Part shown: in pieces, positions 13,032 to 59,191 of the stretch
Layout: every line of letters begins with the position of its first letter
Position numbering within the stretch: position 1 is the first letter of the stretch
Source of the DNA: an uncultured Nitrospina sp.
GTDB lineage: Bacteria; Nitrospinota; Nitrospinia; Nitrospinales; VA-1
Assembly: GCA_964510965.1 (NCBI GenBank)
Contig: CAZECX010000001.1
Span: forward strand, 13,582-77,581
Reading direction: 5' to 3'
Length of the DNA: 64,000 bases
Position numbers and translations under genes: made by a program
The notes under the pieces: generated by a model
The model's database searches: none
Seen by the model: only the letters and a program-made list of their open reading frames with translations
Told to the model about the DNA's origin: nothing

Positions 13032-13037
13032 ACATCC

Positions 13038-14177: not shown

Positions 14178-14178
14178 T

Positions 14179-15381
14179 ATGTTTCGATTGAACAAAGAAT
14201 GGAAAGTAAGGCTGGGAGTATTCCGAAACGACCGCAGGTCGTATCTTAGTTTTTTGATGCTGGTATCGCTTTTCCTTTTAACCCTGCCAGCAGAGATGAT
14301 TTGTAATGTCCGTCCTTTAGTTATTGTTGTGGATGGGAAACCCCATTTCCCTATATTGGTTACATACAGTGAAAAAGACTTTGGCGGCAGTTTGCCAAGC
14401 GAGCCTGATTATAAGTCCAAAAGTTTTTCTGAGCTTTTAAGTGGCGTGTCGGCGACAACCGATTCGGAAGGCACTGGTCTGGGTTTAGACTTGGGGGACT
14501 TTGAAGACGAGGAAGATAACAACGCTATACCTGAACCTTTGAATGACATCCTCCAAAATTCTCCAAGGGATTTCTGGATGGTTTGGCCACCGGTTCGCTA
14601 TGACTACAAATATATTCCTACCGAATCCAATACCGGGAATGTTGTGCTTGCGGCTCCTTACCAGACGGAGTCACCTATTGGCAAAGGGTCCATTGAATCT
14701 TCCTGGGCCGATGGTCATTATTTAGGCACCGATGATCGAGGGCGCGATGTGTTAGCCCGGCTGATTTATGGGTTCAGGATATCCATGATCTTTGGGATAT
14801 CGTTGGCAATAACCGGAACGATAATAGGTTGCTTAATTGGCGGCACGCAAGGGTTCTTTGGTGGTTGGGTGGACCTTTCGGGACAAAGACTGACGGAAAT
14901 ATGGGGTTCCATACCGCGTCTTTATATTTTAATCATCCTCAGTTCTTTTCTTGTGCCCTCGGCTTTGTTACTCTTTCTGATTTTAAATCTAACTGCATGG
15001 ATGGGAATTGCCGCATATATACGGGCTGAATTTTTGAAGATAAGGAACTACGAGTTTGTCAAGGCGGCCAAAAGCCTGGGAGTTTCAAATTTCAAAATCA
15101 TGCGCCGACACATTCTTCCCAATGCTCTGACTCCTGTCGTCACCTTTTTTCCTTTCGAAGTAACTGCGGGAATACTTGCGTTGGTGAGCCTCGATTTTCT
15201 AAATTTAGGAGTTCCCAGTCCCGCTCCAAGCCTCGGCGAACTTTTGGCACAGGGGAAAAACAATCTTCATGCCATATGGATACTGTTACCTACATTTGTA
15301 ACCTTAAGCTTGACGATCACCTTGCTGACTTTTGTAGGTGAAGGTGTTCGAAATGCTTTTGATCCAAGAAAAACTCTATAA
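14179..15381 (+). CDS. yejE: ABC transporter permease YejE
   Basis: ATG 14179 lies 1 nt after the yejB stop. Matches YejE (FRNDRRSYLSF, LGTDDRGRDVLARLIYG, SLGELLAQGKNNL). It carries an extra acidic insertion of about 50 aa (GLGLDLGDFEDEEDNN) in the first periplasmic loop. Confidence 0.85.
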   Translation: MFRLNKEWKVRLGVFRNDRRSYLSFLMLVSLFLLTLPAEMICNVRPLVIVVDGKPHFPILVTYSEKDFGGSLPSEPDYKSKSFSELLSGVSATTDSEGTGLGLDLGDFEDEEDNNAIPEPLNDILQNSPRDFWMVWPPVRYDYKYIPTESNTGNVVLAAPYQTESPIGKGSIESSWADGHYLGTDDRGRDVLARLIYGFRISMIFGISLAITGTIIGCLIGGTQGFFGGWVDLSGQRLTEIWGSIPRLYILIILSSFLVPSALLLFLILNLTAWMGIAAYIRAEFLKIRNYEFVKAAKSLGVSNFKIMRRHILPNALTPVVTFFPFEVTAGILALVSLDFLNLGVPSPAPSLGELLAQGKNNLHAIWILLPTFVTLSLTITLLTFVGEGVRNAFDPRKTL

Positions 15382-37747: not shown

Positions 37748-39886
37748 TCAAATTTCTAAACGGGGTTTAACCAGTATATGAGCAAGGCTTTCCGGTAGCA
37801 ACGGTTTTTCAACAATATTCCCTTGAATTACATCACAACGGTATTTGCGTAGTAGTTCTTTCTGCTCTTTGGTTTCCACTCCTTGGGCAGCAGTCCTTAA
37901 ATCAAGGCTTTTGCCGACAGTAATAATAGTGTTGGTAATAGCGTCATTGGCTCCTGTGAATAATCCATTCACCAATCCTCGATCGATATTCAATCCGCTC
38001 AAAGGTAAGGTAGCCAAGGTGTTTAGGGAAGATAACCCCATACTGAAATTATCAATGATAATTTTAGCCCCCATTTCATTGACTTCATTCAATTGCTTTT
38101 TATGTTCAGCCGAAGTTTTTACTAAATTGATTTCTGGAATTTCTATTTCAACAAATCCACTGGGAAGCCCCGATTTACTAATAAAATTATCCAGGGTTTG
38201 AGAAAATTTGGGGTTCATCAGTTGACTATCAGAAATATTTAATGCCAGAGGCAAGGGTGTTAATCCGTCTTTTTTCCAAATCGCGATTTGTTTTTGAATA
38301 TTTTCAAATACCCATTCACCGATGGGCAGCATCAATCCTTTTTCTTCTGCAAAGGGCAGAAAGTTATCGGGTAAAATAATGCCTTTCTCGGGGTGATTCC
38401 ATCGAAGTAATACTTCAAGTCCAGTACATACACCTGTTTTGGAATCCACCTTGGGTTGGTAATTTAAAATAAAGGCATCGTCTTCCAAGGCTCTGTGTAA
38501 ATCATTTTTGAGGTCAAATCGTTTTTGAGCCACTGAAAGCAATTCAGGGTCATGCATAAAATAAGTATTTTTCCCCTGAGCCTTGGCCCGATACATCGCC
38601 GCATCTGCATTTTTATAAAGCGTTTCCACATCATTGCCGTCATTGGGGTAAACCGCGATGCCAATGCTGAAACTGGAAAAGATTTCGTGTGATTCAATTT
38701 GAAAAGCGGGCTTGAGAGATTCAACTATCCTTTCCGCAAGCACAGTAGAATAATTGCTGTCCTTCAACCCACTCAAAAGAACAACAAACTCATCACCTCC
38801 AATTCTGGCAACAGTGTCTTCCCCTCTAAGCAATCCGGTCAAACGTCCTGCGACTTGCTTTAATAATTCATCACCCACAGAATGGCCCAGGGTGTCATTC
38901 ACGGTTTTAAAGTCATCCATATCGAGAAACAACAATGCGAACTTTTGCTTGTTACGATCCGAATGAGCAAGAGCCAGCTGAATTCTATCGTTGATCATAT
39001 TGCGGTTGGGTAAATTAGTCAGAGGATCAAAAAAAGCCATTCGCTTCATTTTGTATTCCATCTGTCGAAACTCGGTGAGATCTCTTACAATTACAACAAG
39101 GGCGCTGGTATCCCGGAGGACCATCAATTTCATTTTTACTTTTATAGGATAGACCGTGCCATCCTTTCTCTTTTGAAAAGCTTCAAAAACCTGAATAATT
39201 TTGCTTCCACTTTTAAGTGTTTCAGCGTATTCATCAAATTCGAGTCGTGATTGATCTTCCCAGAATTCATAAAGAGCCCTGCCCTTAAGTTGACTCTTGG
39301 AATAACCCATGTTCTTTGTAGCCACAGAATTGGTTTGGGTAATTTTGTAATCTTTGTCATCAATGACAAAAATTTCGTTGCTGGTATCGTCCAGCACCTG
39401 TGATAATTTTTCAGCGTTGTCTTTCGTCAGAACCAACTCGGCTTTCATGTCGTCCATGACATCTAAATCAGTACGAGCTCTTTGTGAAAGAGTCTTTAGC
39501 AGAGCAAACAGGGATTGGGAGTGGTCAGAAAATTCTTTTTGAAATTTTTCATCGGTAATTTCAAGCAATTGCGATTGCACTTCTGCACGAATGGTTGCAG
39601 ATCGGGGTTCAGATCCAATCAAACCCATTTCACCGATGTATTCACTGGTCTTTCTTCTGGCAATCACCTTGTTCTTTTTATAAACCAGCAATTCTCCAGA
39701 AAGGATGATGTACATGGCATTAGAAACATCTCCTTCTTCAAATAATACTTCAAGGGCTTCCAAAGTAACTATTCGGGAAGAGCGCGCCAATTTTGCAAGC
39801 GTTTCTTCAGAAAAAAAGCTTAAAAAATCAACATTCCTAAGCTGCTCTAAGTTTTCGACTTCATCCATTGTAAAATTTTCTGCCAT
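37748..39886 (-). CDS. cNMP-binding / PAS / GGDEF / degenerate-EAL protein (predicted diguanylate cyclase)
   Basis: 712 aa. cNMP cassette SEYIGEMGLIGSEPRSA, a PAS domain, then GGDEF (aa 363-367, nt 38786-38800) with RGED I-site. The EAL half reads EVLLR...DNFSMGLSS...NID...QGVE. Confidence 0.85.
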   Translation of the reverse strand: MAENFTMDEVENLEQLRNVDFLSFFSEETLAKLARSSRIVTLEALEVLFEEGDVSNAMYIILSGELLVYKKNKVIARRKTSEYIGEMGLIGSEPRSATIRAEVQSQLLEITDEKFQKEFSDHSQSLFALLKTLSQRARTDLDVMDDMKAELVLTKDNAEKLSQVLDDTSNEIFVIDDKDYKITQTNSVATKNMGYSKSQLKGRALYEFWEDQSRLEFDEYAETLKSGSKIIQVFEAFQKRKDGTVYPIKVKMKLMVLRDTSALVVIVRDLTEFRQMEYKMKRMAFFDPLTNLPNRNMINDRIQLALAHSDRNKQKFALLFLDMDDFKTVNDTLGHSVGDELLKQVAGRLTGLLRGEDTVARIGGDEFVVLLSGLKDSNYSTVLAERIVESLKPAFQIESHEIFSSFSIGIAVYPNDGNDVETLYKNADAAMYRAKAQGKNTYFMHDPELLSVAQKRFDLKNDLHRALEDDAFILNYQPKVDSKTGVCTGLEVLLRWNHPEKGIILPDNFLPFAEEKGLMLPIGEWVFENIQKQIAIWKKDGLTPLPLALNISDSQLMNPKFSQTLDNFISKSGLPSGFVEIEIPEINLVKTSAEHKKQLNEVNEMGAKIIIDNFSMGLSSLNTLATLPLSGLNIDRGLVNGLFTGANDAITNTIITVGKSLDLRTAAQGVETKEQKELLRKYRCDVIQGNIVEKPLLPESLAHILVKPRLEI

Positions 39887-40101: not shown

Positions 40102-42363
40102 TTGATAAATAATAAAAAAAAATATTCCATCTATTTTTCTGGGTTGGTAATTACTTTAGCAGTTTTGTGTGCCTATGTGGTTTTTCCAAATGCATTAACA
40201 CGTCTGGATTATCTATTTCAAAATTTTCATTTCCAACTACGCGGACCCATTAAACCTACGTCCAATATTGTTATCGGAAGAATTGATGAAAAAAGTATAG
40301 ATACTTTGGGAAGATGGCCCTGGCCGCGATCGACTTTTGCAAAAATCACTGAAAACCTTTCAAGCTTGAATGCCAAGGTAATTGCTTATGATGTTATTTT
40401 TTCATCTCCTGAAAAATTTCCATCGGAAGAGAATTTGATTGAGCTGGATAAACTGATCTCGGAAAATTCTTCCGCCAAAAATTATTTAAAGAATCTAATA
40501 AACCAAAACAACCCCGACGAAGTTTTTTCAAAAACTCTTTCAGATGGAAGCCCAACGGTTCTGGGTTATTTTTTCCATTTTTCTCCTGATGGTCTTGACC
40601 ATCTTTCTGAGGAGCAACGTCATCAATTTTTTAAAGACATAAAAAAATCACAGTTCAGAGGATTTTTAAAATCCAACGCGGATTTGGATATTTCCCATCT
40701 CCCCTTTCCAAAAGCTTTTGCAATTGAATCTAACCTGGCTATTTTTTCTGATTCCGCATCCGGTTCCGGTTACTTGACTTTTAATGTGGACCTCGATGGC
40801 ATGATCCGACGTTTGCCCTTAATGGTGCGCTATCACGACAGCATCTCTAAAAAGGATTTTTACTTTCCTCCTCTCTCTTTACGAATTCTCGAAACTTATT
40901 TGGATGGGAATTTACTTTTCAGGGTGGGCGAAGGGGGAATGGAAGAAGTCATAATGGATGCGGATGAATCGGTAATCATACCCACAAACTCCAAAGGCGA
41001 ACTGGAAATAAATCATCTTGGGCCTAGAGGGACATTCTCCAGTTTTTCTATCAGCGATCTTTTAAAACCCGAAAAACTATCGGAGCTCAAAGACAAAATA
41101 CAAGGGAATATTGTGTTGATCGGTGCAACTGCGACAGCACTGGAAGATTTAAGGTCAACCCCTTTTGACCCCATCCTGCCGGGGGTGGAAATTCACGCAA
41201 CAATATTGGATAATTTTTTCAATAAATCGTTCCTCTCCCAAGCTTCTCCACTTTACGATTTACTTTTAATAATTATTACGGGGATTTTATGCACCCTTAT
41301 CTACTCCCAAATCAAACCCGTCTCAGGCCTCATCTTTTGGGTATTGAGCAGTGGGCTATTATTTCTTTTAAGTCATTGGACTTTTGTTGAAAAAGGTTTC
41401 TGGTTAACCGATATTTATCCGTTTTTCACCAATACTGGAATAGCAGCTTTAATAATGATTGATCATTTTATGCGTGAAGAAAAACAAACAAAATTTATTA
41501 AAGAGGTTTTTGGACAATATCTATCTCCCCGGGTTGTAAAAGATTTATTAGCAGATCCATCAAGGTTAAAACTGGGGGGTGAGCAAAAAATACTCACCGC
41601 ATTTTTTACTGACCTGGCCAACTTCACCACATTTTCAGAAAAACTATCAGCCGAAGAGCTGGTATCGCTGCTAAACAGCTATTTCACTGAAATGACAGAC
41701 ATCTTGATTGAAAATGATGGAACGCTGGATCGTTATGATGGTGATGCAATCAAAGCCTTCTTTGGAGCCCCCTTATACTTTGAAGATCATGCCAAACGTG
41801 CCTGCTGGACCTGCATTGAAATGCAGGAAAGACTCAGTGAATTGAGAAAAGAATATAAGGAACAGGGAAAACCAGAACTGGTAATGCGGGTAGGTATCAA
41901 CACCGGAGAAATGGTTGTAGGTAATATGGGTTCAAGCACTCGCATGAATTACGGTATGAACGGAGATTCCGTAAACCTGGCCGCCCGTCTTGAAGGAGCC
42001 AACAAACAATACGGGACCTGCACCCTTATAAGTGAATTTACTTACCAGGAAGCGAAAGATTTTATTGAGGTGAGAGAACTCGATACCCTTCGCGTTGTCG
42101 GTCGTTCCACGCCTATAAAAATTTATGAGTTGCTGGGGAAAAAAGGCAGTCAAAATTTTCCAATCGGCTTACCGGATTATTTGGAAGGCCTGAAAAACTA
42201 CAAAGCCCAGAAATGGCAGGCCGCTATTGAGAGCTTTAAAAGAGCCTTAAAAGCTAATCCTGAAGATGGCCCATCACAAACTTATTTGGAGCGCTGCAAA
42301 ATATTCATGGAAGCTTCCCCAGGAGAAGGTTGGGATGGAGTTTTTAACTTGACCAAAAAGTAA
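40102..42363 (+). CDS. CHASE2-sensor class III adenylate/guanylate cyclase
   Basis: 753 aa. TM1, a periplasmic region of about 340 aa (GRWPWPRS is a CHASE2 hallmark), 3 TM helices, then the cyclase domain (FFTDLANFT, YDGDAIKAFFGAP, GDSVNLAARLEG) and a TPR-like tail. TTG start as in the ORF track. Confidence 0.85.
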   Translation: MINNKKKYSIYFSGLVITLAVLCAYVVFPNALTRLDYLFQNFHFQLRGPIKPTSNIVIGRIDEKSIDTLGRWPWPRSTFAKITENLSSLNAKVIAYDVIFSSPEKFPSEENLIELDKLISENSSAKNYLKNLINQNNPDEVFSKTLSDGSPTVLGYFFHFSPDGLDHLSEEQRHQFFKDIKKSQFRGFLKSNADLDISHLPFPKAFAIESNLAIFSDSASGSGYLTFNVDLDGMIRRLPLMVRYHDSISKKDFYFPPLSLRILETYLDGNLLFRVGEGGMEEVIMDADESVIIPTNSKGELEINHLGPRGTFSSFSISDLLKPEKLSELKDKIQGNIVLIGATATALEDLRSTPFDPILPGVEIHATILDNFFNKSFLSQASPLYDLLLIIITGILCTLIYSQIKPVSGLIFWVLSSGLLFLLSHWTFVEKGFWLTDIYPFFTNTGIAALIMIDHFMREEKQTKFIKEVFGQYLSPRVVKDLLADPSRLKLGGEQKILTAFFTDLANFTTFSEKLSAEELVSLLNSYFTEMTDILIENDGTLDRYDGDAIKAFFGAPLYFEDHAKRACWTCIEMQERLSELRKEYKEQGKPELVMRVGINTGEMVVGNMGSSTRMNYGMNGDSVNLAARLEGANKQYGTCTLISEFTYQEAKDFIEVRELDTLRVVGRSTPIKIYELLGKKGSQNFPIGLPDYLEGLKNYKAQKWQAAIESFKRALKANPEDGPSQTYLERCKIFMEASPGEGWDGVFNLTKK

Positions 42364-42419: not shown

Positions 42420-44522
42420 ATGAATGCAAGGACAACATTAGATGTCTTTAATGAAATAGATTTTCTAAGAGACCTGCCCGGGTTAAATTTTCTCCACGAA
42501 AATGCAAATATTGGAAGATACCAAAAAGGAGATTTCCTGTTTAGAGAAGGGGAAACCGGAGATACCATGTACGTGATTACCGATGGGTGTCTGGAGGTAT
42601 TCAAAGAAAACCGCATCATAGCCAAAAGAACCAAGGGGGAATACCTCGGTGAAATGGCCCTTTTGGGAAATAAAATTCGATCCGCTTCTGTTAAAGCCAC
42701 AACCGATGTTCAAACAATTGAAATCCATGAAAAACATTTTTTAGAATTTTTATCCCTTAATCCTCAGGCCTTTTTACCCCTATTCCAAACTCTTGCCCAT
42801 CGATGGAAAGAGGACTTGGAAAAAATTGATTCTGACAATCTTGAGTTAAAAAAACAAATTCAGTTAAACAGTAGGTATTCTCGCCTCTTAGACGACACCT
42901 TCAACGAAATTTATATTCTTGAAAAAGAAACATATCGAATTCTTCAAGCAAATTCCAAAGCTATTCAAAATCTTGGCTTCACCCACGAAGAATTGAATAA
43001 AACAGTCTTTAGCGATGTATTTGAAAATTTGAAATTGAATGAATTAAAAGAATTATTCGCAACCCTGATTGATAAAAAACAAGTTCAAGTTTCCTTTGAA
43101 AGTGAGAGTAAAAGAAAGGATGGCACAACCTATCCTGTCGAAATACGCATTCAATATTTTGAACTCGAAGATCCCCCGCTGATCTATGCCATTGTCGAAG
43201 ATATCTCAGACAAAAAAGCAATGGAACTGCACATTAAGAAGCTGGCCTTTTACGACACTTTAACCCAATTACCTAATCGAAACTTAATCCGAGATCGTTT
43301 GGAAATCATGCTACCCCGCGCGCAAAGATCAAATTCCAAGGTGGCTGTTTTATCCATGGATTTAGACAACTTTAAATCAATAAATGATTCCCTTGGACAT
43401 GAAGCGGGAGATCAGTTTTTAATCCAAGTGGCGAATCGCTTTGAAGGGATCCTGCGTAAAGAGGATACATTCGGACGTTTGGGTGGTGATGATTTTGTTA
43501 TTCTTCTCCCCAATCTAGAAGATGAATACTTTCCAGCAAAAATGGCGCAACGTGTCCTTGAAATTATGGAGCGGCCCTTCGAATTACAGGAAAAACTATT
43601 TCACTGCAACTTTAGTATTGGAATTGCAATGTTCCCGGATAATGGCAAGGATGTTGAAACAATTTTTAAGAATTCAAACATTGCAATGTATCAGGCCAAA
43701 AAAAATGGTGGCCATACTTACCATATATATGAATCTTCTATGCATGACAAAATCATATCGCGATTGGCTATGGAGCAGAATTTGTGGAATGCAATTAAAA
43801 ATAAAGAATTTAAAATGCATTATCAACCCAAGGTCAACCTGAAAACCGGATTGATTGAAGGATTAGAAGCTCTTATTCGCTGGCCGCAACCAAGTGGTAA
43901 AAATATCTCCCCAGCAGTATTCATTCCCCTTGCCGAGGAAAGCCGACTCATTCATAAAATATGGGATTGGACCCTAGAAACCACATGCGGTCAAATCCAG
44001 GAGTGGTGCCACTTATACGGGAAAGGCATAAAAGTAGGAGTTAACCTGTCGGGCAGACAGTTTGAGCAACCGGACTTAGTTGAAAAAATTAAAAATGTTG
44101 TAATAGCGGAGGGAATCCATCCCAAGTTCCTGGAAATTGAAGTTACTGAAACCGCAGTTATGGCAAATATAAAGGCGGCCATCGATGTATTGGATCAACT
44201 CCGAGATTTCGGGGTCCAAATATCTCTTGACGATTTCGGTTCCGGATATACCTCTCTGGGCTATTTGAAAAAACTCCCCATTAACACCTTGAAAATTGAT
44301 CAATCTTTTATTCGCGATTGTACGGACACCAGCAATTTGGCGATTATTCAGGGCATCATTACCATTTCAAAAAAAATGGGATTTAAAACAATTGCTGAGG
44401 GAGTAGAAATGCAAGATCAGCACGATTTATTAAAGAGTCTTGAGTGCGATCAGTTCCAAGGTTATCTGTGCAGTAAGGCACTCCCGCCTGAAGAAATCGC
44501 TCGTTTAATTTGGCTCGATTGA
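42420..44522 (+). CDS. cNMP-binding / PAS / GGDDF / EAL protein (predicted c-di-GMP phosphodiesterase)
   Basis: 700 aa. cNMP cassette GEYLGEMALLGNKIRSA, a PAS domain, then GGDDF (aa 355-359, nt 43482-43496) with RKED I-site. The EAL set is fully canonical (EALIR, NLS, EVTE, DDFGSGYTSL, KIDQSF, EGVE, QGY). Confidence 0.85.
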   Translation: MNARTTLDVFNEIDFLRDLPGLNFLHENANIGRYQKGDFLFREGETGDTMYVITDGCLEVFKENRIIAKRTKGEYLGEMALLGNKIRSASVKATTDVQTIEIHEKHFLEFLSLNPQAFLPLFQTLAHRWKEDLEKIDSDNLELKKQIQLNSRYSRLLDDTFNEIYILEKETYRILQANSKAIQNLGFTHEELNKTVFSDVFENLKLNELKELFATLIDKKQVQVSFESESKRKDGTTYPVEIRIQYFELEDPPLIYAIVEDISDKKAMELHIKKLAFYDTLTQLPNRNLIRDRLEIMLPRAQRSNSKVAVLSMDLDNFKSINDSLGHEAGDQFLIQVANRFEGILRKEDTFGRLGGDDFVILLPNLEDEYFPAKMAQRVLEIMERPFELQEKLFHCNFSIGIAMFPDNGKDVETIFKNSNIAMYQAKKNGGHTYHIYESSMHDKIISRLAMEQNLWNAIKNKEFKMHYQPKVNLKTGLIEGLEALIRWPQPSGKNISPAVFIPLAEESRLIHKIWDWTLETTCGQIQEWCHLYGKGIKVGVNLSGRQFEQPDLVEKIKNVVIAEGIHPKFLEIEVTETAVMANIKAAIDVLDQLRDFGVQISLDDFGSGYTSLGYLKKLPINTLKIDQSFIRDCTDTSNLAIIQGIITISKKMGFKTIAEGVEMQDQHDLLKSLECDQFQGYLCSKALPPEEIARLIWLD

Positions 44523-49410: not shown

Positions 49411-49866
49411 TTAAGCTTGCGGTTTGTACCGCCATCCTTCCCTTTTTTTACAGGTCCACCCATCATTGATCTGGAACGTAGAAAGGTTATCCAAAGTTTC
49501 AGAACTAAACAATGCGACTATGCCTTCGCCTTCTATCGGATTATCTTTTAAGTGGAGTCTTTTCAGTTTACTAAGAAATTTTGCCTTCGCCAGATTTTCT
49601 AAACCTCTATCACTGATACCATTTTTGTTTAAATTCAAATACTGTATATTTTCAAGCAAAGGGCAATCCACCAAATCTTGAACCCCCTTATCACCCAGAT
49701 TATTGTCATCCAGATCAAGCCAGCTGACTTCTTTCATTTTTGGTGACTCCCATAACAACTTGGCTTCTTCAGGAGTAAGACCCTTGCCGCTCAACATCAA
49801 TTGGTTGCCACGCAGGCGACCTTCAAAAATCATTTCAACGCTTTCAAATCTTGTTTCCTGAGACAT
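49411..49866 (-). CDS. Cytoplasmic leucine-rich-repeat (RNI-like) protein
   Basis: 151 aa, no signal peptide. Repeats of 28 aa: LDLDDNNLGDKGVQDLVD..., LNLNKNGISDRGLENLAKA..., LHLKDNPIEGEGIVALF. Its stop lies 3 nt from the serB start. Confidence 0.6.
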   Translation of the reverse strand: MSQETRFESVEMIFEGRLRGNQLMLSGKGLTPEEAKLLWESPKMKEVSWLDLDDNNLGDKGVQDLVDCPLLENIQYLNLNKNGISDRGLENLAKAKFLSKLKRLHLKDNPIEGEGIVALFSSETLDNLSTFQINDGWTCKKREGWRYKPQA

Positions 49867-50224
49867 ACAGATCCCTCATGGGTTAACCCTTCAATATCGA
49901 ATGAATTCTATAACATGAAACAATGCTGAACGGCAACCGTCTCTTAATATATGCTATGAGGTTCTTTATAGATTCATATCCCGTATTATTAGCATCTCTA
50001 TCCCCTCATTTGCCTTATATAATATTTGACCTGACAATTCCCCACAAAAAAGTCGGGCATAAGAATAAAAGCAGCCTCTAAAAAATGGGATAAATCCGGG
50101 GATTGTCCAACATACTAATAATCCGTATACTGGCACAGCTAAATTTCTACCTACCAAATTTAACCCAGCTCCGGCAGGTATAAGTACCTTCACTAACATA
50201 AGCACAAAATTTAAAGTTCTAATC

Positions 50225-50620
50225 TTATATGACATAGCAGGAAAGCAAGACAGTAATCCTTTTCCTTTTCAATCCTTCCAATAGGGATTGAATAAACTCA
50301 TCATCGTATTTATCACCAATTTCAAATATCCTTTGAATTTTCTCATCCCAATCAAGATGTTCAATCTGCTTTAGTTCTTGAAGAAACTCATTTGGAAAGG
50401 CCTCTTTGACCAAAGAAATGATTTTATGCATTTTAATCTTTGAGCCATACATTTTGGTCCAGTCGGGACATCCTTCTTTTACATATTTTTCATAAAACTC
50501 TGGCGATAAGGTTACACCTCTCTCATTGCATATATCTAACTCCTCAAGATTTGCTAAACAAATCTCAAGCAGTACGGGCAATCTGTGATCAAGTTTTTCC
50601 TGGTATGCGGGTTTTTCCAT
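50225..50620 (-). CDS. Hypothetical protein
   Basis: 131 aa, helical and acidic. I recognise no motif. Confidence 0.4.
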   Translation of the reverse strand: MEKPAYQEKLDHRLPVLLEICLANLEELDICNERGVTLSPEFYEKYVKEGCPDWTKMYGSKIKMHKIISLVKEAFPNEFLQELKQIEHLDWDEKIQRIFEIGDKYDDEFIQSLLEGLKRKRITVLLSCYVI

Positions 50621-50858
50621 AACTCATCAATAAAGAGGCAAAATATAGACATACCAAACCTATTTTTAAAAGCAATAGTCATTTGGATGATTTTTTCGTA
50701 TAAGAGTATGGGCCGAGCCAAAGGGCTTTGAAAACTGTTACGATTTTGTCACTTATTGCTCTTCTGCCCAATTATTCCCAACTTCAAGTTGACTGTTCAA
50801 ATTTTATCCCTGAGACTATTTGATGATAGAAAATCAATTTTAGTGAGGTTTAGGGTGA

Positions 50859-51230
50859 ATGGATTTAAATAAAAAATTATTGGTTGTTGATGACAGTCAG
50901 ATCCAGTTGGTTGTTTGCGTTAACCAACTCAAGCAATTGGGCTTTGAAAAGATAGCAGTAGCTAAGGATGGGGGAAAAGCCTATTCCATCTTAGAAAAGG
51001 GTTCCATTGATGTGATTATCTCTGATTGGGAGATGCCCGAAATGGATGGGTTAGAGCTTTTAAAAAAGGTCAAAACTAACCCTTCCCTTCAGGGCATACC
51101 CTTTATAATGCTTACTGCCCACAAGGATGAAAAGTTGAATCAGGAAGCAATTCAATTTGGTGCTGCAGATTTCATCGTTAAACCCGGGACCCCTGATTTA
51201 TTTAAAGAAAAGCTGAAGGCGATCATGTGA
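50859..51230 (+). CDS. Single-domain (CheY-like) response regulator
   Basis: 123 aa. LLVVDDS, phospho-acceptor context VIISDWEMPEMDG, MLTA and KP motifs. No output domain. Confidence 0.85.
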   Translation: MDLNKKLLVVDDSQIQLVVCVNQLKQLGFEKIAVAKDGGKAYSILEKGSIDVIISDWEMPEMDGLELLKKVKTNPSLQGIPFIMLTAHKDEKLNQEAIQFGAADFIVKPGTPDLFKEKLKAIM

Positions 51231-51232
51231 CC

Positions 51233-52345
51233 ATGCGATATTATTCCTTGGTCAGGTATGCAATTGTTTTTTCAGGGTTACTTGTTTTTGTCTTGATTTT
51301 ACTGCTTCCAAAATCCTGGGCGCAGGTTGGGGCCAAGGTGGATGTCGATAAAGACCGATGGATCAGTATTGGAGGAGGATTACGCACCAGCTTTGAGTCT
51401 GTTGAAGATGGTGCGCCCAATAAACAAAACCGTTCCAATACTTTTGACTTTGAAAGCTTTCGTCTTTATATAAATTCGCAAGTATATAAGGGAATTCAGT
51501 TTGAATTTAATACCCAAGGTGATGCTGGCGACAATGTTCGTGTTCTTGATGCAATAGCAAAAATTGATTTCACAAACTCCTTTAATATTTGGGCAGGCCG
51601 AATGACTACTCCCACTGGGAGATCCAATCTTAGCGGCCCCTATTTTTTAAATGTTTTTGATTTTCCTTTTGCCGAGGCTTACCCTAACCTGATTGTAGGG
51701 AGGGATGAGGGTGCCGTTTTTTGGGGTGTCGTTGATAAAGGGCGGCTCAAATATCAACTTGGTTTGTTTGAGGGGAAAACAGGAGGTTCGAATCAAGGGG
51801 ACAGCCTTCTGTACTCCGGACGATTAACCTATAACTTTTGGGATCCTGAACCTTCCATTTACTATAACAGCAGCACCTATTACGGAGCTATGGACGTCCT
51901 TGCTGTTGGGCTGGTAGGCATGTTCCAGGAAGACGGTGCTGGTACGTCTGCCAGTCAGGGTGACTTCCTGGGTTGGAATGTTGATTTGCTCATGGAAAAA
52001 AAATTGGGAAATGGTGGAGTTGCTACTTTGGAGGCAGCCTATTATAAATATGACCTTGAAGATACTTCTGATAGCGCTTTGGTTCAGGGAGATAGTTATT
52101 TTGTTACTGTCGCCTATTTATTTTCCAAAAAAACAGGGTGGGGACAATTCCAGCCCTTTTCTCGGCTTCAGAGTTTTGACCGAGCAGAATCTAATATTAC
52201 AGGAAGTCGAGGAACACGTGATCGTTATGATGTAGGTCTCAACTATATTATTTCGGGCCACAATGCGCGGATTTCACTATTTTATGCCAATGAGGACCCT
52301 GGGGTCGATATTTTCAAGATCGGTTTTCAATTACAATTGTTTTAA
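51233..52345 (+). CDS. Outer-membrane porin (beta-barrel)
   Basis: Signal peptide ...LLLPKSWAQ, amphipathic beta-strands throughout, C-terminal FKIGFQLQLF with a terminal Phe. Start is ATG 51233, or GTG 51227 overlapping the receiver stop. Family (OprO/P-like or FmdC-like) not resolvable by eye. Confidence 0.55.
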   Translation: MRYYSLVRYAIVFSGLLVFVLILLLPKSWAQVGAKVDVDKDRWISIGGGLRTSFESVEDGAPNKQNRSNTFDFESFRLYINSQVYKGIQFEFNTQGDAGDNVRVLDAIAKIDFTNSFNIWAGRMTTPTGRSNLSGPYFLNVFDFPFAEAYPNLIVGRDEGAVFWGVVDKGRLKYQLGLFEGKTGGSNQGDSLLYSGRLTYNFWDPEPSIYYNSSTYYGAMDVLAVGLVGMFQEDGAGTSASQGDFLGWNVDLLMEKKLGNGGVATLEAAYYKYDLEDTSDSALVQGDSYFVTVAYLFSKKTGWGQFQPFSRLQSFDRAESNITGSRGTRDRYDVGLNYIISGHNARISLFYANEDPGVDIFKIGFQLQLF

Positions 52346-52380
52346 AAATAATTCTTTTAGAATTTGAGGTTAGATAGCTT

Positions 52381-53694
52381 GTGAAAATCCCGATTGATCG
52401 TCGAACATTTTTAGCCGCTTCATCTGCATTTTTGGCGGAGCTGAGTCGCCCATACAAGATTTTTGCAGCTCAAACTGCGAAGAATTCTCCTTGGATACAT
52501 CCAGGCGGGGTGATTAAAGTTGGATTTCTCTGGTCCTTGACAGGCGGTTTGTCTGTTATTGAAAAACCTTCGCGTGATGTGGGCCTGTTCTGGGCAGACG
52601 AAGTTAATAAAAATGGGGGAATCGCGGGATGCAAGATAGAGCCTGTTGTCTTTGATGCTGAATCTGATATGAAAACATATCGGACTGGAGTCAAAAAACT
52701 AATGCACGAGGATAAGGTATTGGCTGTGTTTGGTGGATTTACTTCAGCCAGTCGACGGTCGGTTATGCCCTTGGTGACGCTGGCAAATCACTTATTCTAT
52801 TATCCTACGGTTTATGAAGGAAAAGAGTGCTGGCAAAACTTGATATGCACGGGTGCCCTGGCCAATCAACACTCATATGACCTTATTCCATATATGGTGA
52901 AGCATTTTGGGCCAAGAGGATACTTCATTGGTTCCAATTATGTTTGGCCTAAAGAGTCAAACCGAAATGCAAGCCGCTGGCTCAAAAATGCCAATGGTGA
53001 AAAGGTTGGCGAACAATATATGCCTTTGGGTCTCGGCAACTTTGAACCCATTTTAGAAGATGTTAAAAAAAAGAAAGCGGATTGGATATTTTTGACAGTG
53101 GTGGGTACCTCAGAGTTGTTTTTCAGGAAAGCTTATAGCAAGGCAGGTTTAACGCCGGACAAATTGCCCACTGCCGCCCTAACAACATCGGAAATGGAAA
53201 TTAAAGCAATGGGCTATGAATATGGAGAAGGACATTATACCTCAGCTCCATACTTTCAAAGTATCAACAGTCCAACAAACCAAAAGTTTGTGGATGGTTT
53301 TCTTTCAAGTCCATATGGAGAAACCGGGGTTACTCATGCCAATATGGAAGCCACATACCTGTCCTTCCTGTTTTTCAAGAAAGCGGTTGAGAAACTGGTT
53401 TTAGAATCGGGGGAGTCATCTATAACACCTAAAAGCATCCGGGACTTTTCTGCAAATTTAAAGTTGTCCTCAATTGAGTCACCGCAGGGTGATATTCGTA
53501 TGGATCCTAATAATTTTCATTGCTGGCTGACCCCTAAAATAGGTCGGTTCGACAGTGGTGGCCAGGTAGAAATAATGCATGAAAGAAAAGAGTTGGTTGA
53601 GCCAAAACCATTAATTTTATATCCCCACAGGGGAAAATGTCGTCCTGATGGTTTGCATTTGCCATCTGGAAAAATTGTTAAAGCGGCTTCTTAA
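52381..53694 (+). CDS. Tat-signal periplasmic binding protein, UrtA/FmdD/AmiC (urea/short-chain amide) type
   Basis: GTG start. Twin-arginine motif IDRRTFLAAS...IFAAQ. Collinear with UrtA-type proteins as I recall them (IKVGFLWSLTGGLS, NKNGGIAGCKIEPVVFD, FGGFTSASRRSV, YYPTVYEGKEC, MEATYLSF). Confidence 0.7.
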   Translation: MKIPIDRRTFLAASSAFLAELSRPYKIFAAQTAKNSPWIHPGGVIKVGFLWSLTGGLSVIEKPSRDVGLFWADEVNKNGGIAGCKIEPVVFDAESDMKTYRTGVKKLMHEDKVLAVFGGFTSASRRSVMPLVTLANHLFYYPTVYEGKECWQNLICTGALANQHSYDLIPYMVKHFGPRGYFIGSNYVWPKESNRNASRWLKNANGEKVGEQYMPLGLGNFEPILEDVKKKKADWIFLTVVGTSELFFRKAYSKAGLTPDKLPTAALTTSEMEIKAMGYEYGEGHYTSAPYFQSINSPTNQKFVDGFLSSPYGETGVTHANMEATYLSFLFFKKAVEKLVLESGESSITPKSIRDFSANLKLSSIESPQGDIRMDPNNFHCWLTPKIGRFDSGGQVEIMHERKELVEPKPLILYPHRGKCRPDGLHLPSGKIVKAAS

Positions 53695-53709
53695 ATCTTT
53701 TATAGTCAA

Positions 53710-56700
53710 ATGAGAAAAATATTAAATTACATAAATCAAATGTCGCTGGGGCAGAAGGTGATGAGTCTGATCATTGTTGAATTCATTTCTTACTCATTCA
53801 TTACCACCAATGCGATCAAGCAAATTGATGTTGTCGGTCAAGAAGTCAGGCAAATGTCCGAATTATACCTGCCCCTGTTTTTAGAAGCCCAGGAACTCCA
53901 TAAACATGTCCAGGATGAACGAATCAGTTTTATAAAAATCCTCAATGTGGGTGAACGGGTGGTTTATGACAAAGATGCTGAAACGACTTTCATTTTATCA
54001 AGGGAAAAGTATTTTGAATTTCAAGCTGAAGTAGAGAAGCATATAGTTGAAGCAAAAGATTTAATTGTGAATGCAGTGAATCATTCATTAAGAAAGGACA
54101 GTTTGATTCAGATACATAGTTCACCTATCCTTGAAGCTTTGAAAGAGATTAATCTGGCTGCAAAAGCCCAAAAAGTTTCAGCTAAACAAGTTTTTACCCA
54201 TGTTGAAGACGGCTCTTTTCTGATGGGACTTGAACTCATGGGCAATGTTAAGAAAGCTGATGATAATCTTGTCGTTAAAATCAACGAACTCCTGCATGAG
54301 CTGAATATTTTAAAAGGTCTATCTGTTGCCTACTCGGAGCAAGTTCAGAATGATGCAGAAAGTTTTACTATTTTAGTGGCAATCATAACAATTGTAATTG
54401 GTATCACTGTTATTTTTCTTGTGGTCAGGCTGAATATAACAAAACCCCTCCACCTTCTTACCGGTACGATTGAGTCTTTTGATGCCTTAAAAAGTACTGA
54501 AAAATCCCCTGAGGAAGAGGAACTAATATCCCGTGGGGATGAATTAGGAATGGTCAGTCGAAGTTTTAACAAATTGAAGAATGAACTAGCCCAAACCACC
54601 AGGGAACTTTTTGAGGAAAAAGAGGGTTTAGAAAGAAAAGTGGAAGAGCGGACTCACAAACTTCAGGAGAGCGAGGAGATGACTCGTTCTGTTATCACTA
54701 CTGCAATGGATGCAGTGATATTGATTGATCATGAAAATAAAATATTGGATTGGAATGCACAGGCCGAGATAATTTATGGTTGGGCCAAGGAAGAAATTTT
54801 GGGTTTAACCATTTCGGATTGTATTATTCCAGAGCAATATAGGGAAGCTCATATAAAAGGCTTTAAGCATTTTCTTGATACCGGGGAAGGGCCTGTACTA
54901 AATACCAGAATTGAAATCACAGCTCTTCGAAAAAGTGGGGAGGAATTTCCAATAGAACTTACAATTACTCCGCTTAAAATAGGTGACAATTACATTTTTA
55001 ACGCATTTTCCCGCGATATTACAGAGCGCAAGCATGCCGAAGAAACTTTGCGGGAAGGGGAACAACGCCTGGTCCTGGCCCTGGAAGGGGGAAACCTGGG
55101 GTCCTGGGACGTAAATGTCGAGACTGAAGAAATGGTGGTGAATGACCGTTGGGCGGAAATGCTGGGGTATTCCTTGGAAGAAATCACACCGATCACGCAG
55201 AAAACTTGGGCTGATACCATCCACGTGGAAGACAGGGAGCGGGTCCTGGAGGTTGGACTGTCTTACAAAACGGGGATGAAGTCAAATTATGATGTGGAAT
55301 ATCGCGCCCTGACCAAAGATGGGGAAATTCGCTGGCTTTATTCACGAGGGTCGATCGTGGAACGCACAGGGGATGGAAAGCCGGTCCGATTAGTTGGAAC
55401 GGTCATGGATATTACAGAGCGCAAACAAGCAGAGGATAAATTGCGCCAGGCCCAACAGGAAGCTGAATCTGCGAACCAGTCCAAAAGCGATTTCCTTGCC
55501 AACATGAGCCACGAGATTCGTACTCCCATGAATGCAATCATTGGCATGAGTGGTTTGGCAATGAAAACCGAATTAACCACCAAGCAGCATAACTATATTA
55601 ATAAGATTCAAATTTCAAGCCATGCTTTGCTGAGTCTCATCAACGATATTCTAGATTTTTCAAAAATCGAGGCTGGCAAACTGGATATGGAAAACCTCAA
55701 TTTTCATCTTGATGAAGTGTTGGATCATTTATCTACACTAACAACTTTGAAGGCGCAGGAAAAAGGATTGGAGGTTTTGTTTCAGGTTGGACGAACGGTG
55801 CCACGTTATCTTATAGGGGACCCACTTCGGTTGGGGCAGATTTTGACAAACCTAACTAATAACGCGGTGAAGTTTACAGAGCATGGGGAGATTGTTGTAA
55901 GAATCCAACTCTTGGAAGAAGAGAAAGACCAGGTTCGACTGGAGTTTTCTGTGAAAGATACCGGGATCGGTTTAACCGAGGAGCAGATAGACAAGTTATT
56001 TAAAGAGTTCAGTCAGGCCGATTCCTCCACCACCCGGAAATATGGCGGAACAGGGCTGGGACTCACCATATCCAAAAAACTTGTTGAGATGATGGATGGC
56101 AAAATCTGGGTGGAAAGTGAACCCGAAAAGGGAAGCCGGTTTATCTTTACGGCTGTTTTCCAAAAGGGAGTGGAGAAAGAGCGTAAGGTTTTGGCTGCTT
56201 CACAAGATCTGGCAGGAAAGCGGGTTCTTATAGTGGACGACAACCAATCGGCACTCGATGTATTAGAACATGCCCTTTTGTCATTCGACTTTGATGTTTC
56301 CTCAGCCTCTTCAGGCGCTGAAAGTATTTCCATGGTTGAAGATGCTGATACAGAGAAGCCTTATGATTTTATCATTATGGATTGGCAGATGCCTGAGATG
56401 AATGGAATCCGGACATCCGAAATAATAAAAACGCACCAAAAATTGAAGCATATCCCGAAGATCATTATGCTGACCGCCTATGGTCGCGAAGAGATTTCCA
56501 GGCAGGCAGAGGAAGTAGGTATAGATTCGTTTTTAGTCAAGCCTATGAACACCTCGGTTTTATTCGAAACCATTTTAGAAGTGTTCGGGGAGGATGTTGA
56601 AAGGAAGCATCGCAAGGAAGCTTTCCAGACATCATCGGCACAGGAAACCGAAGTCCTGGAAAAAATTCGCGGCGCGAGTATTTTGCTTGTGGAAGACAAC

Positions 56701-57681
56701 GAAATCAATCAGGAAATCGCCAATGAAATTTTAGAGCAGGCGGGGTTCAAGGTCACTATTGCCAGCAATGGTTCTGAAGCAGTTGAAATGGTTACTCAAG
56801 CGGATTACGACTGCGTTCTCATGGATTGCCAGATGCCTGTTATGGATGGTTATGAAGCCACCCAAGCCATTCGTAAAGAAGAACGTTTTTCCTCACTCCC
56901 TATAGTTGCTATGACAGCCAACGCCATGCAGGGGGACCGCGAAAAGTGCCTCGATGCAGGGATGAATGATCATGTATCGAAACCAATCAACAATAAAGAA
57001 TTGTTTTCCGCTCTGAAAAAATGGATTGAGCCTGGTGAACGCAGTGTTGATGAAGTTGTTTCGGCGCCACCAAAAATAGTTGAAGCAGAAGTTTCCTTGC
57101 CTGAACTGGAGGGTATCGATACCAAAGCCGGGTTGGCCATCGTTGGCGGCAATGAAAAACTCTATCGCAAACTACTTATCAAATTCCATCAAGATAACCA
57201 AAACTCCGTAGCAGAAATTCGTAAGGCACTGGAAACTGGAAACGCTAAACTGGCTGAGCGATTGACCCACACAGTTAAGGGAGTTGCCGCCAATACAGGA
57301 GCAAAGAATCTTGCCGCCGCTGCGGAGCCTCTTGAGTCAGCAATCCGCAAAGGTCAAGGCGAATTATTTGAACCTCTCCTGGATGACTTTTCAATAAACT
57401 TGGTTCAAGTCATAGGGTCTTTAAACATATTGATGACAGATGAAACTAAGGAACTAAAAGAAGAACTGGATTTGTCAAAAATAAAACTGCCTCAAGCACT
57501 TATCGATTCGATAAAAGCGGATACTAATGGCGGGATGTTAATGGAGCTGGATCAATATTTTTCTCAGATTGAAGCAATTGAACCCGATGGCAAGAAATTG
57601 GCTGAACAATTAAAAGAACTGGCTGATCAGTTTGACGATGAAGGTATATTAAAAATATTGGATGAAATGGAAAAGAATTAA
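53710..57681 (+). CDS. Hybrid sensor histidine kinase (periplasmic helical domain-HAMP-PAS-PAS-HisKA-HATPase-REC-REC-HPt)
   Basis: 1323 aa. Two TM helices bracket a helical periplasmic domain of about 180 aa. H-box [13 protein letters not shown]-boxes DTGIGL and GGTGLGL. Receivers [12 protein letters not shown] and [12 protein letters not shown]. HPt [11 protein letters not shown]. Confidence 0.9.
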
Positions 57682-57895: not shown

Positions 57896-59191
57896 TTATT
57901 CCTTTTTATCCTGCTCTGAATCATCAATGTATTTTCGATTTTTTAAGGCTTCCGGCAAATAATCCTGTTCCACAAAGTTTCCTGGATAATCATGGGGATA
58001 CTTGTAATCCACACCGTATCCATAAGCGGCCTTGGCGTCGCTGTAATGTGTGTCTTTCAAATGATCGGGAACCGGATAAGAATGTCCCTTTTGCTGGACA
58101 TCATTTATCGCCTTATCAATAGCAGAAATAGCCGTATTGTCTTTTGGGGCTTTTGCAATATAAATGACTGCTTGCGCCAAAGGAATACGCGCCTCTGGAA
58201 GACCCAATCGGTCTATACACTCCGCTGCCGCTAAAGCGAGTAATAAAGCTTGTGGATCAGCATTGCCAACGTCTTCAGCCGCAGTAACCAGCAAACGTCG
58301 GGCAATAAAGCGAGGGTCTTCGCCTCCCGCTATCATTTTTGCCAACCAGTAAATAGCGGCATCTGGGTCCGAACCTCTTAAGCTTTTTTGAAATGCCGAA
58401 GCGTGGTCATAATGCTCTGTGCCCTTTTTATCATAAAGAGTCGCCGTTCTCTGGATAATCCCTTCCACTCGGGACAAAGAAACCTTTAATTCTTTTTTAG
58501 ATAGCGCCACATCGTTTGCCGCTTCAAGAACATTTAAAGCACGGCGTGCATCACCATTAGCATGACTGACAATCAATTCCTGAGCATCTTCTTGAAGAGT
58601 GATCTTCGACTCGCCCAATCCATTTTCCTTGTCGGTTAGAGCGCTTAAAATAATATTTCGAATCGACCCTCTATCCAAAGTTTCGAGACGGAATATCTGA
58701 CAACGTGATCGTAATGCTGGTATTACCTCGAATGAAGGATTTTCAGTAGTACTTCCTATCAATCTAATGGTTCCATTTTATACAAAAGGCAATACAGCAT
58801 CATGCTGTGCTTTATTGAAACGATGAATTTCATCCAGAAATAAAATGGTTCTACTTCCTTTAACCTTCCAGATTTGGGTGGCAGACTGAACAACTTTTCT
58901 GATATCTGCTACCCCTGCATTAACGGCACTGATTTCATGGAACTCACTTTTTGTTAAGTTTGCAGCAATCCTTGCCAATGTTGTTTTTCCCGATCCGGGA
59001 GGCCCCCAAAGTATGAACGAAAGACCCGACTCAGTTTCAACAAGCTCTCTTAATGGCAACCCCTTTCCAATCAAGTGTTCTTGACCAAAATATTTCTCAA
59101 GGGTGCCTGGCCGCATTCGCGCCGCAAGGGGTGGCACAGGCGAGCTTTTCGTCAAATTAGTATATTCAGGAAAAAGTTCCATGTTATTCAA
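57896..59191 (-). pseudogene. rarA: Replication-associated recombination protein A (RarA/MgsA) interrupted by one in-frame TAA
   Basis: ORFs 58778-59191 (Walker [30 protein letters not shown]) and 57896-58762 ([10 protein letters not shown]...GDARRALN...) are in the same frame. The junction reads [21 protein letters not shown], and the stop (58778-58780) sits where E. coli RarA has Glu (LPHIEDGTITFIGATTENP). Confidence 0.8.

Follow-up and report, generated by a model that had tools for sequence, protein, structure and literature searches.

Analysis of a 64-kb stretch of DNA from an uncultured Nitrospina sp. (contig CAZECX010000001.1; the window in what follows) identified a block of four genes encoding a single-domain receiver, an outer-membrane porin, a type-I substrate-binding protein (SBP) and a hybrid sensor histidine kinase. 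Judged from its sequence and from related public loci, this block probably serves to sense a small urea- or amide-type solute outside the cytoplasm, by a pathway in which the SBP is coupled to the kinase. An earlier interpretation of the same DNA (the sequence-only reading) had proposed that the SBP serves as the ligand sensor of the kinase. This proposal is well supported by comparative genomics, which revealed adjacency of the two genes in 11 of 11 contexts together with a co-conserved sensor module.

Conservation of the SBP-kinase pair and of the kinase sensor

The neighborhood of the SBP gene was compared in the window, in two Nitrospinota-like loci (L001 and L012), in a set of loci mostly from Gammaproteobacteria metagenome-assembled genomes (MAGs) (L006/L007/L008, L009, L011, L013, L019, and L020), in Aminobacter anthyllidis (L010), and in L014. 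In all 11 contexts, an ortholog of the window SBP (53 to 90% identity) directly precedes a histidine kinase gene. The spacing between the two genes ranges from a 4-nucleotide (nt) overlap to ~76 nt. For the sensor-SBP clade, 639 hits were counted at an E-value of ≤1e-20. The SBP of L001, a MAG labelled Nitrospinota, is 83% identical to that of the window. L001 was also the one true relative recovered in a contig scan with the SBP alone; L002 to L005 yielded distant LivJ-like proteins and were excluded. Adjacency of the kind expected of an SBP-dependent kinase was found conserved across at least three lineages, independently of transporter genes.

The kinases are 680 to 1323 amino acids (aa) long, and their cytoplasmic parts vary: some have PAS-PAS, some GAF and some neither, and HPt is not always present. 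Because only the N-terminal ~300 aa are shared and the cytoplasmic parts differ, it is the extracytoplasmic module that co-occurs with the SBP. Identity within this sensor module was 34 to 91% in the nine kinases compared (46% in L006) and, outside this set, ~41% in L019 and L020. Insertions and deletions are nearly absent: the periplasmic part comprises 177 to 179 aa and the mature SBP 406 aa in all nine. Pairwise identities of the SBPs and of the sensor modules are strongly correlated, although the coefficient (r=0.95 over 36 pairs) is confounded by phylogeny. An exhaustive search with kinase aa 1 to 240 revealed 47 representatives of the sensor-module family at an E-value of ≤1e-3 and 23 at ≤1e-10 among 1.84 billion sequences. 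Family size was taken from this search; a word-indexed search returned just 8 proteins. On these counts, the sensor module is specific and fairly rare.

L012 is the closest relative. Its kinase (11341-15072) is 84 to 87% identical to the window kinase in aa 1 to 337 and 562 to 1323 and carries a GAF domain where the window kinase has its PAS pair. The cytoplasmic input module was recently exchanged within a gene that is otherwise conserved. In both L001 and L012, the porin-SBP-kinase block is embedded among very large hybrid kinases (1100 to 1600 aa, with HBM/GAF/PAS and HPt domains), which suggests a multi-kinase signaling island; the window has no such neighbors.

The 64-kb window was searched by tblastn for uptake and degradation genes, urease not being among the queries. 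No homolog of urtB or urtC, of a urea transporter, of an amidase or of N,N-dimethylformamidase (DMFase) was detected in it, and no AmiR homolog was found there. Only generic ABC ATPase similarity was observed, at 15.4 to 17.1 kb of the window. The proteobacterial loci encode another, paralogous SBP together with urtBCDE-like permease and ATPase genes. Because this separate SBP accompanies the transporter, transport in these loci does not require the SBP next to the kinase. In a neighbor-joining tree, the kinase-adjacent SBPs form one clade and the transporter-linked SBPs its sister clade (49 to 55% identity to the window SBP), with urease-linked UrtAs far outside (~30%). The lack of a transporter in the window and the redundancy of the orthologs for transport are together what marks an SBP as dedicated to sensing.

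Genes matching both DMFase subunits (DMF_alpha and DMFA2_C) are located near the SBP-kinase pair in the proteobacterial loci. Three or four conserved genes without a Pfam match lie between these genes and the pair (L009, 4276-7833; L010, 5613-7877, first three only; L019, 3325-6832; L020, 3214-6884). Their products comprise ~357 to 401, 228 to 231, 101 to 105, and 446 to 454 aa. A NarL/GerE response regulator adjoins the pair in L006, L011, and L013, and the L006 neighborhood additionally contains AmiC/AmiR, an aliphatic amidase-type CN_hydrolase and a urea transporter.

Pfam and hydropathy analyses bore out the kinase layout that had been read from the sequence, with two transmembrane (TM) helices flanking a helical periplasmic domain of ~180 aa, followed by the series of domains from HAMP to HPt. 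The HAMP match is weak (17 bits, below the cutoff). TM1 (aa 17 to 36) is weakly hydrophobic (Kyte-Doolittle, ~1.44), and TM2 (aa 219 to 239) is strong. Searching the PDB with kinase aa 1 to 300 revealed no sequence match, and the Pfam four-helix bundle (4HB) models 4HB_MCP_1 and TarH did not match aa 1 to 239. An AlphaFold2 model of the sensor contains four long helices (aa 13 to 84, 88 to 125, 132 to 166, and 170 to 240) arranged as a single bundle, with a predicted local distance difference test score of 74.6 overall and of 77 to 94 across aa 41 to 210. The best Foldseek matches were the 4HB domains of chemoreceptors (Vc1313, PcaY, and Tar) and NarQ, all with E-values of >0.01 and none significant; the top match, the ligand-binding domain of Vc1313, gave a target-normalised TM-score of 0.78. 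Remote sequence relatives of the bundle (20 to 25% identity) are chemoreceptors carrying TarH/4HB_MCP_1. Such relatives include the methyl-accepting chemotaxis proteins P0157, P0161, P0165, P0169, and P0176, two of which have a C-terminal PilZ domain. According to the structural model, the kinase sensor is a single Tar/NarQ-type 4HB between two TM helices, followed by HAMP.

The sequence-only reading had also classified the kinase as TorS-type. This classification did not hold, as the sensor is a single bundle and the TorS and BarA models match the kinase core only. Both TorS models were rejected (TIGR02956, 442 bits against a cutoff of 676.5; PRK11466, 258 against 982). The TorS match spans only aa 579 to 965, covering the kinase core and a receiver, and the BarA model likewise scored below its cutoff. 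No TorS structure was present among the top 50 Foldseek PDB matches to the sensor.

Conservation along the bundle was determined from 18 non-redundant sensor modules. The mean score was 0.81 in membrane-distal loop 1 and 0.84 in membrane-distal loop 2, and 0.25 to 0.62 in the rest of the bundle. The conserved columns of loop 2 are invariant across nine paired systems. Maltose-binding protein (MBP) docks on Tar at the membrane-distal tip of the bundle. The tip is proposed as the docking surface here because conservation peaks there, as with MBP-Tar, and by this analogy the two loops likely form the candidate SBP docking surface.

The binding protein, the porin and their putative solute

The SBP reached the gathering scores of both Peripla_BP_5 and Peripla_BP_6 (PF13458, 210.7 bits). 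Its earlier assignment to the urea/amide (UrtA/AmiC) family stands as far as Pfam membership is concerned but does not extend to orthology with UrtA. The model of true UrtA (TIGR03407) was rejected (297.3 bits against 492.75), in line with the distance to urease-linked UrtAs in the tree. The nearest PDB entries are 8tg1, UrtA (7s6e/7s6f/8hic), and AmiC (1pea; 172 bits).

The SBP carries a twin-arginine signal (RRTFL). Twin-arginine (RRxFL-like) signals are present in SBPs of both the sensor and the transport clades (window, 52381-52470; L006 and L009 to L014), and the urease-linked UrtAs of L016 and L017 have ordinary Sec-type signal peptides. The C-terminal tail of the window SBP is conserved (...GLHLPSGKIVKAAS). 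In the sensor clade, this tail reads ...GLHLPxGKIVKAAS, of which GKIVKAAS is invariant there and missing from the transport clade.

AmiC reportedly contacts acetamide through S85, Y104, and Y150, with T106 limiting the size of the pocket. These four residues align with the conserved residues S122, Y141, Y187, and T143 of the SBP, a correspondence that we treat as a lead. The UrtA motif YP(V/I)Q corresponds to YPTV in the window SBP and to YPTC in proteobacterial SBPs of the sensor as well as the transport clade. Because the Ser/Tyr/Tyr triad and the Thr of AmiC are conserved, the alignment favors an AmiC-like pocket and a small amide-like ligand, although it does not tell urea apart from compounds of the formamide or acetamide type.

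The porin comprises 372 aa when read from the GTG codon and has a signal peptide and the C-terminal end ...FQLQLF. The Porin_O_P match aligns only aa 290 to 355, and assignment to ExtI was rejected (93 bits against a cutoff of 150). FmdC, the short-chain amide/urea porin of Methylophilus, was not named in any source annotation of the porin hits. Homologs with 49 to 56% identity were found directly upstream of urtA(BCDE) in three of three unrelated genomes checked (L015, L016, and L017). A complete ureDABCEFG cluster adjoins the porin-urt locus in L016 and L017; in L015, ureD and the start of the urease gamma gene are visible beside it. The porin is retained upstream of the SBP in L001 and L012. 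The suggestion that this protein admits a small amide or urea-like solute agrees with the position of its family beside urtA and urease genes in the three genomes, a setting consistent with a channel through which urea or small amides pass. The Nitrospinota block thus appears to preserve the porin-urtA order of urea uptake loci, with a kinase in place of the permeases and a sensor-clade SBP in place of UrtA.

Gene organization and predicted phosphorelay

Four open reading frames (ORFs) on the plus strand were verified where the sequence-only reading had placed them (Table 1), and the spacings that it had given for the three junctions were all confirmed. The receiver stop codon TGA occupies 51228-51230; the porin ATG at 51233 leaves a gap of 2 nt, and the GTG at 51227 creates a 4-nt overlap. 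The spacing is 35 nt between the porin and SBP genes and 15 nt between the SBP and kinase genes. Because both neighbors (50225-50620 upstream and the RarA/MgsA gene at 57896-59191 downstream) lie on the opposite strand, the block forms a discrete unit, and GC skew is positive precisely across it. Close homologs of all four proteins exist in public data, and the ORFs are therefore real genes and not chance ORFs. Identical copies of the SBP, the kinase and the receiver occur in public collections on a contig of 104.6 kb.

Table 1. Positions in the window of the four genes, of the encoded kinase domains and of the region upstream
Feature	Position	Strand	Remarks
Upstream intergenic region, presumed promoter	50621..50858	+	Sole gap of >35 nt on the upstream side; upstream gene divergent
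Single-domain receiver, 123 aa, "CheY-like", candidate terminal phospho-acceptor	50859..51230	+	Pfam Response_reg, 98 bits
Outer-membrane porin, 370-372 aa, family found upstream of urtA/urease loci	51227..52345	+	Porin_O_P, 33.1 bits vs 20.9
Type-I binding protein, 437 aa, sensor clade of the UrtA/AmiC family	52381..53694	+	Peripla_BP_5 (PF13433), 361.7 bits; GTG start
Hybrid sensor histidine kinase, 1323 aa	53710..57681	+	TM1, 4HB, TM2, HAMP, PAS, PAS, HisKA-HATPase, REC, REC, HPt
Kinase: sensor module, aa 1-300 (TM1, bundle, TM2, HAMP)	53710..54609	+	Co-occurs with the SBP
Kinase: periplasmic 4HB, aa 37-218	53818..54363	+	AlphaFold2 model, fold matches
Kinase: membrane-distal loop 1, aa 81-92, candidate docking surface	53950..53985	+	G81 and VVYD (84-87) invariant or nearly so
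Kinase: membrane-distal loop 2, aa 162-176, candidate docking surface	54193..54237	+	Motif beginning with F; conserved columns
Kinase: two cytoplasmic PAS, aa 324-447 and 475-565, exchangeable input module	54679..55404	+	Pfam
Kinase: HisKA and HATPase_c, kinase core, H601	55480..56151	+	Pfam
Kinase: two receivers, D891 and D1039	56221..57015	+	Acidic pair, phospho-Asp and Lys present in both
Kinase: HPt, H1187	57172..57414	+	Pfam Hpt, 41.8 bits

Promoter and terminator scans of the block revealed nothing exceeding shuffled sequence; one sigma-70-like match upstream of the receiver gene (50746-50775) was not above chance. Because these scans gave only background, co-transcription is deduced solely from the spacing and the conserved gene order. 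As had been claimed, no DNA-binding regulator is encoded within the block. The description as a four-gene operon was checked against gene order elsewhere: the SBP-kinase unit is kept everywhere examined, but the CheY-like gene is kept only in L012. It is absent in L001, and the proteobacteria have NarL-type regulators instead.

The kinase domains were assigned by Pfam as HisKA (aa 591 to 656), HATPase_c (703 to 814), two receivers (~838 to 955 and 991 to 1102), and Hpt (1155 to 1235), with H601, D891, D1039, and H1187 as the predicted phosphorylation sites. All elements of a His-Asp-His relay are present in the kinase. In the 123-aa protein, Response_reg is the sole Pfam domain. The model for chemotaxis CheY (PRK10610) was rejected (95 bits against a cutoff of 189), and by its sequence the protein is a generic single-domain receiver, not a chemotaxis CheY. 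Its catalytic residues D11/D12, D56, and K108 are intact, with D56 as the predicted phosphorylation site. An ortholog with 90% identity occupies the same position in L012. This ortholog speaks for the earlier suggestion that the relay ends on the receiver; its absence from L001 and the use of NarL-type regulators in the proteobacteria, where they are paired with HPt-less kinases, speak against it. The receiver is perhaps the most economical phospho-acceptor in this block, a view that we hold with somewhat less than even confidence.

Two paralogous cNMP-binding-PAS-GGDEF-EAL proteins are encoded at 37748-39886 (minus strand) and 42420-44522 (plus strand). Between them lies a gene for a CHASE2-adenylate/guanylate cyclase (40102-42363, plus strand), and the group is located 6 to 13 kb upstream of the operon. 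A link of the phosphorelay to cyclic-nucleotide or c-di-GMP signaling is conceivable. The region divergently upstream of the block (49411-49866 and 49966-50620, minus strand) encodes a small leucine-rich-repeat protein and two ORFs without a Pfam match; no evidence tying these two intervals to the operon was found. Downstream, the gene for the RarA/MgsA recombination ATPase (minus strand) is broken into two ORFs by a single in-frame stop at a position where, we presume, a conserved Glu would be expected. The split may reflect a nonsense mutation or a pseudogene, or else a mistake in sequencing or assembly.

Proposed pathway, competing explanations and related systems

In the proposed pathway, the porin of the urea-locus type would pass the solute across the outer membrane. 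The SBP of the UrtA/AmiC family, predicted to be exported by the twin-arginine route and transporter-less in the window, would capture the solute and, in its liganded or unliganded form, would dock on the membrane-distal tip of the kinase 4HB. Docking would change the signal that TM2 and HAMP relay to the kinase core, after which the phosphoryl group would be transferred from H601 to D891 or D1039, from there to H1187 of the HPt domain and finally to an external receiver, for which the presumably co-transcribed 123-aa receiver (D56) would be the most obvious candidate. The ligand would be perceived by a separate SBP, as in MBP-Tar or TorT-TorS, using a Tar/NarQ-type bundle combined with a cluster-B SBP. 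The parts of this scheme that we infer are physical docking with its site, the identity of the ligand, the direction of regulation, the final acceptor and the output.

Several observations weigh against this scheme. The window covers just 64 kb of the genome, and a urtBCDE-type transporter may be encoded elsewhere. The 11 contexts were taken from the top hits of one search, in which long contigs were favored, and are not a random sample; the correlation between SBPs and sensor modules could come from shared ancestry alone. A 4HB can bind small ligands itself, as in NarX and Tar, and the conserved tip might be where the ligand binds. The clues to the ligand diverge, as the porin points to urea loci and the SBP clade to DMFase/amide loci, and the VQ of the UrtA pocket motif is replaced by TV in the window SBP. 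L001 lacks the CheY-like gene, and the receiver of L014 is divergent (27% identity) and not orthologous, so conservation of the system does not extend to the receiver. L012 carries a REC-adenylate/guanylate cyclase gene immediately after the kinase, which makes the terminal acceptor uncertain.

The SBP could be an ordinary transport protein supplying urea or amide to an ABC permease encoded elsewhere, with a kinase that senses a different signal, via its bundle or PAS domains, and whose only tie to the porin and SBP genes is their joint regulation. SBP genes without a transporter are often seen, annotations of the family read "urea transport system substrate-binding protein", and the window SBP is 50 to 55% identical to genuine transporter-linked SBPs in a genome of which so little is visible. 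Such a role would nevertheless leave unexplained why the adjacency and the co-conserved extracytoplasmic module persist in all 11 contexts and in distant lineages. The proteobacterial transporters have an SBP of their own, the sensor SBPs form a separate clade with a distinctive tail, and no permease was found in the window. We therefore regard the transport explanation as very unlikely. Direct binding of the ligand by the bundle at its conserved tip, with the SBP acting only as a buffer, a scavenger or a ligand-competing negative regulator, appears equally improbable. The nearest folds (Vc1313, PcaY, NarQ, and Tar) are all direct-binding 4HB domains, and the invariant acidic and aromatic tip motif could line a ligand site. 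However, the ligand sites of NarX and Tar are located close to where helices 1 and 1' meet in the dimer and not at the loop tips, and direct binding is hard to reconcile with an SBP and a bundle that strictly co-occur and are co-conserved at equal length.

A third possibility retains the architecture and changes only the ligand, which could be a methylated urea or formamide, a guanidine-like compound, cyanate or some other small nitrogen compound. The failed UrtA cutoff with the low identity to urease-linked UrtAs is compatible with this, as is the Val or Cys found at the position of the UrtA pocket Gln; in addition, the marine DMFase-like enzymes may act on another substrate. Against it stand the conserved AmiC triad with its small-pocket Thr, the association of the porin family with urea loci and the AmiC/AmiR, CN_hydrolase and urea transporter neighbors in L006. 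A different ligand seems unlikely, though less so than the two preceding explanations, and sensing of a urea- or amide-type solute through the SBP remains the reading that we prefer.

Comparison with TorT-TorS revealed a shared principle: a non-transport periplasmic type-I SBP is encoded beside a hybrid kinase ending in REC and HPt, the ligand is perceived via the SBP, and the kinase core of the window protein matches the TorS model (442 bits). The TorS sensor is a stacked double 4HB. The window kinase, in contrast, has a single bundle, additional PAS domains and a second receiver, and its SBP belongs to the Peripla_BP_5/6 urea/amide family and not to the TorT family. With MBP-Tar, the system shares a Tar-type bundle and conservation at the membrane-distal tip, where MBP docks on Tar. 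The output here is a histidine kinase phosphorelay instead of a chemoreceptor array, and the SBP is dedicated and kinase-adjacent, whereas MBP is chiefly a transport protein. AmiC-AmiR resembles the system in the fold family of the SBP, in the conserved Ser/Tyr/Tyr and Thr106 counterparts and in the use of an SBP-like protein as a sensor and not as a transporter component. AmiC, however, is cytoplasmic and sequesters an ANTAR antiterminator, whereas the window SBP is exported (RR signal) and has a membrane kinase as its partner. The UrtABCDE loci with an upstream porin (L015 to L017) show the same porin-then-SBP order and porins that are 49 to 56% identical; they differ in having permease/ATPase genes where the window has a kinase, and their UrtAs are only ~30% identical to the window SBP. 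Functionally, the block probably joins the SBP-dependent sensor kinases (TorT/TorS, LuxP/LuxQ, ChvE/VirA, and others), with a receptor geometry nearer to that of MBP-Tar.

The uncharacterized DMFase-linked modules of marine Gammaproteobacteria and Aminobacter have orthologous SBPs (56 to 65% identity) and sensor modules (39 to 46%), encoded in the order seen in the window and tightly spaced. Their kinases are ~690 aa long and consist of HisKA-HATPase-REC without PAS or HPt domains. Unlike the window block, these modules have transporter and amidase-like neighbors, some of them with a divergent NarL/GerE regulator, and lack both the porin and the CheY-like gene. In Paracoccus aminophilus plasmid pAMI5 (L018, 62418-68953), the gene for a signal-less SBP homolog (49% identity) is followed by genes for a PAS-PAS-HisKA_3 kinase and a NarL-type regulator. 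This trio is divergent from DMFase-like subunit genes, an AmiS/UreI channel gene is located nearby, and the host is a culturable, genetically studied methylotroph. The pAMI5 pair was rejected as an instance of the same system, as the kinase is a cytoplasmic PAS-HisKA_3 protein without similarity to the sensor module and the SBP lacks a signal peptide. It looks like a parallel solution, a cytoplasmic counterpart. Together with classic AmiC-AmiR, the pAMI5 arrangement indicates that this SBP family was recruited to signaling several times. For DmfR of Paracoccus pAMI2, the only description is that of a LuxR-family activator. No published description of the SBP/kinase pairing was found in the literature searched, and the text of a 2021 review of SBPs in signal transduction contains no mention of urea, amide, UrtA or AmiC. 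The system is real, conserved, apparently undescribed and mechanistically expected.

Few SBP-dependent kinases have been characterized, and the family reported here spans Nitrospinota to Alpha- and Gammaproteobacteria. Because the proteobacterial pairs adjoin uptake genes and DMFase-like amidase genes, the family probably governs how small organic nitrogen compounds are used in ocean and soil. Among the nitrite oxidizers of the sea, Nitrospinota are a major group, and they are reported to use urea and cyanate. It is conceivable, though we consider it unlikely, that they perceive urea or a small amide as a signal from the environment instead of a nutrient to be transported, with pore, SBP and kinase forming a self-contained line with a non-transcriptional output. 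If so, the output would run via the single-domain receiver (REC-nucleotide cyclase in relatives) into second-messenger or behavioral control, for example, locating or staying near ammonia-oxidizing partners in reciprocal urea feeding. The KAAS tail of the SBP and the invariant bundle tip (VVYD) would then define a docking mode new for SBP-kinase pairs. The modular design, with a fixed SBP and 4HB cassette, an exchangeable PAS/GAF input and a variable output, is useful for the study of transmembrane signaling and for urea/amide biosensors, and the system provides a testable handle on how Nitrospinota perceive urea- and amide-type compounds.

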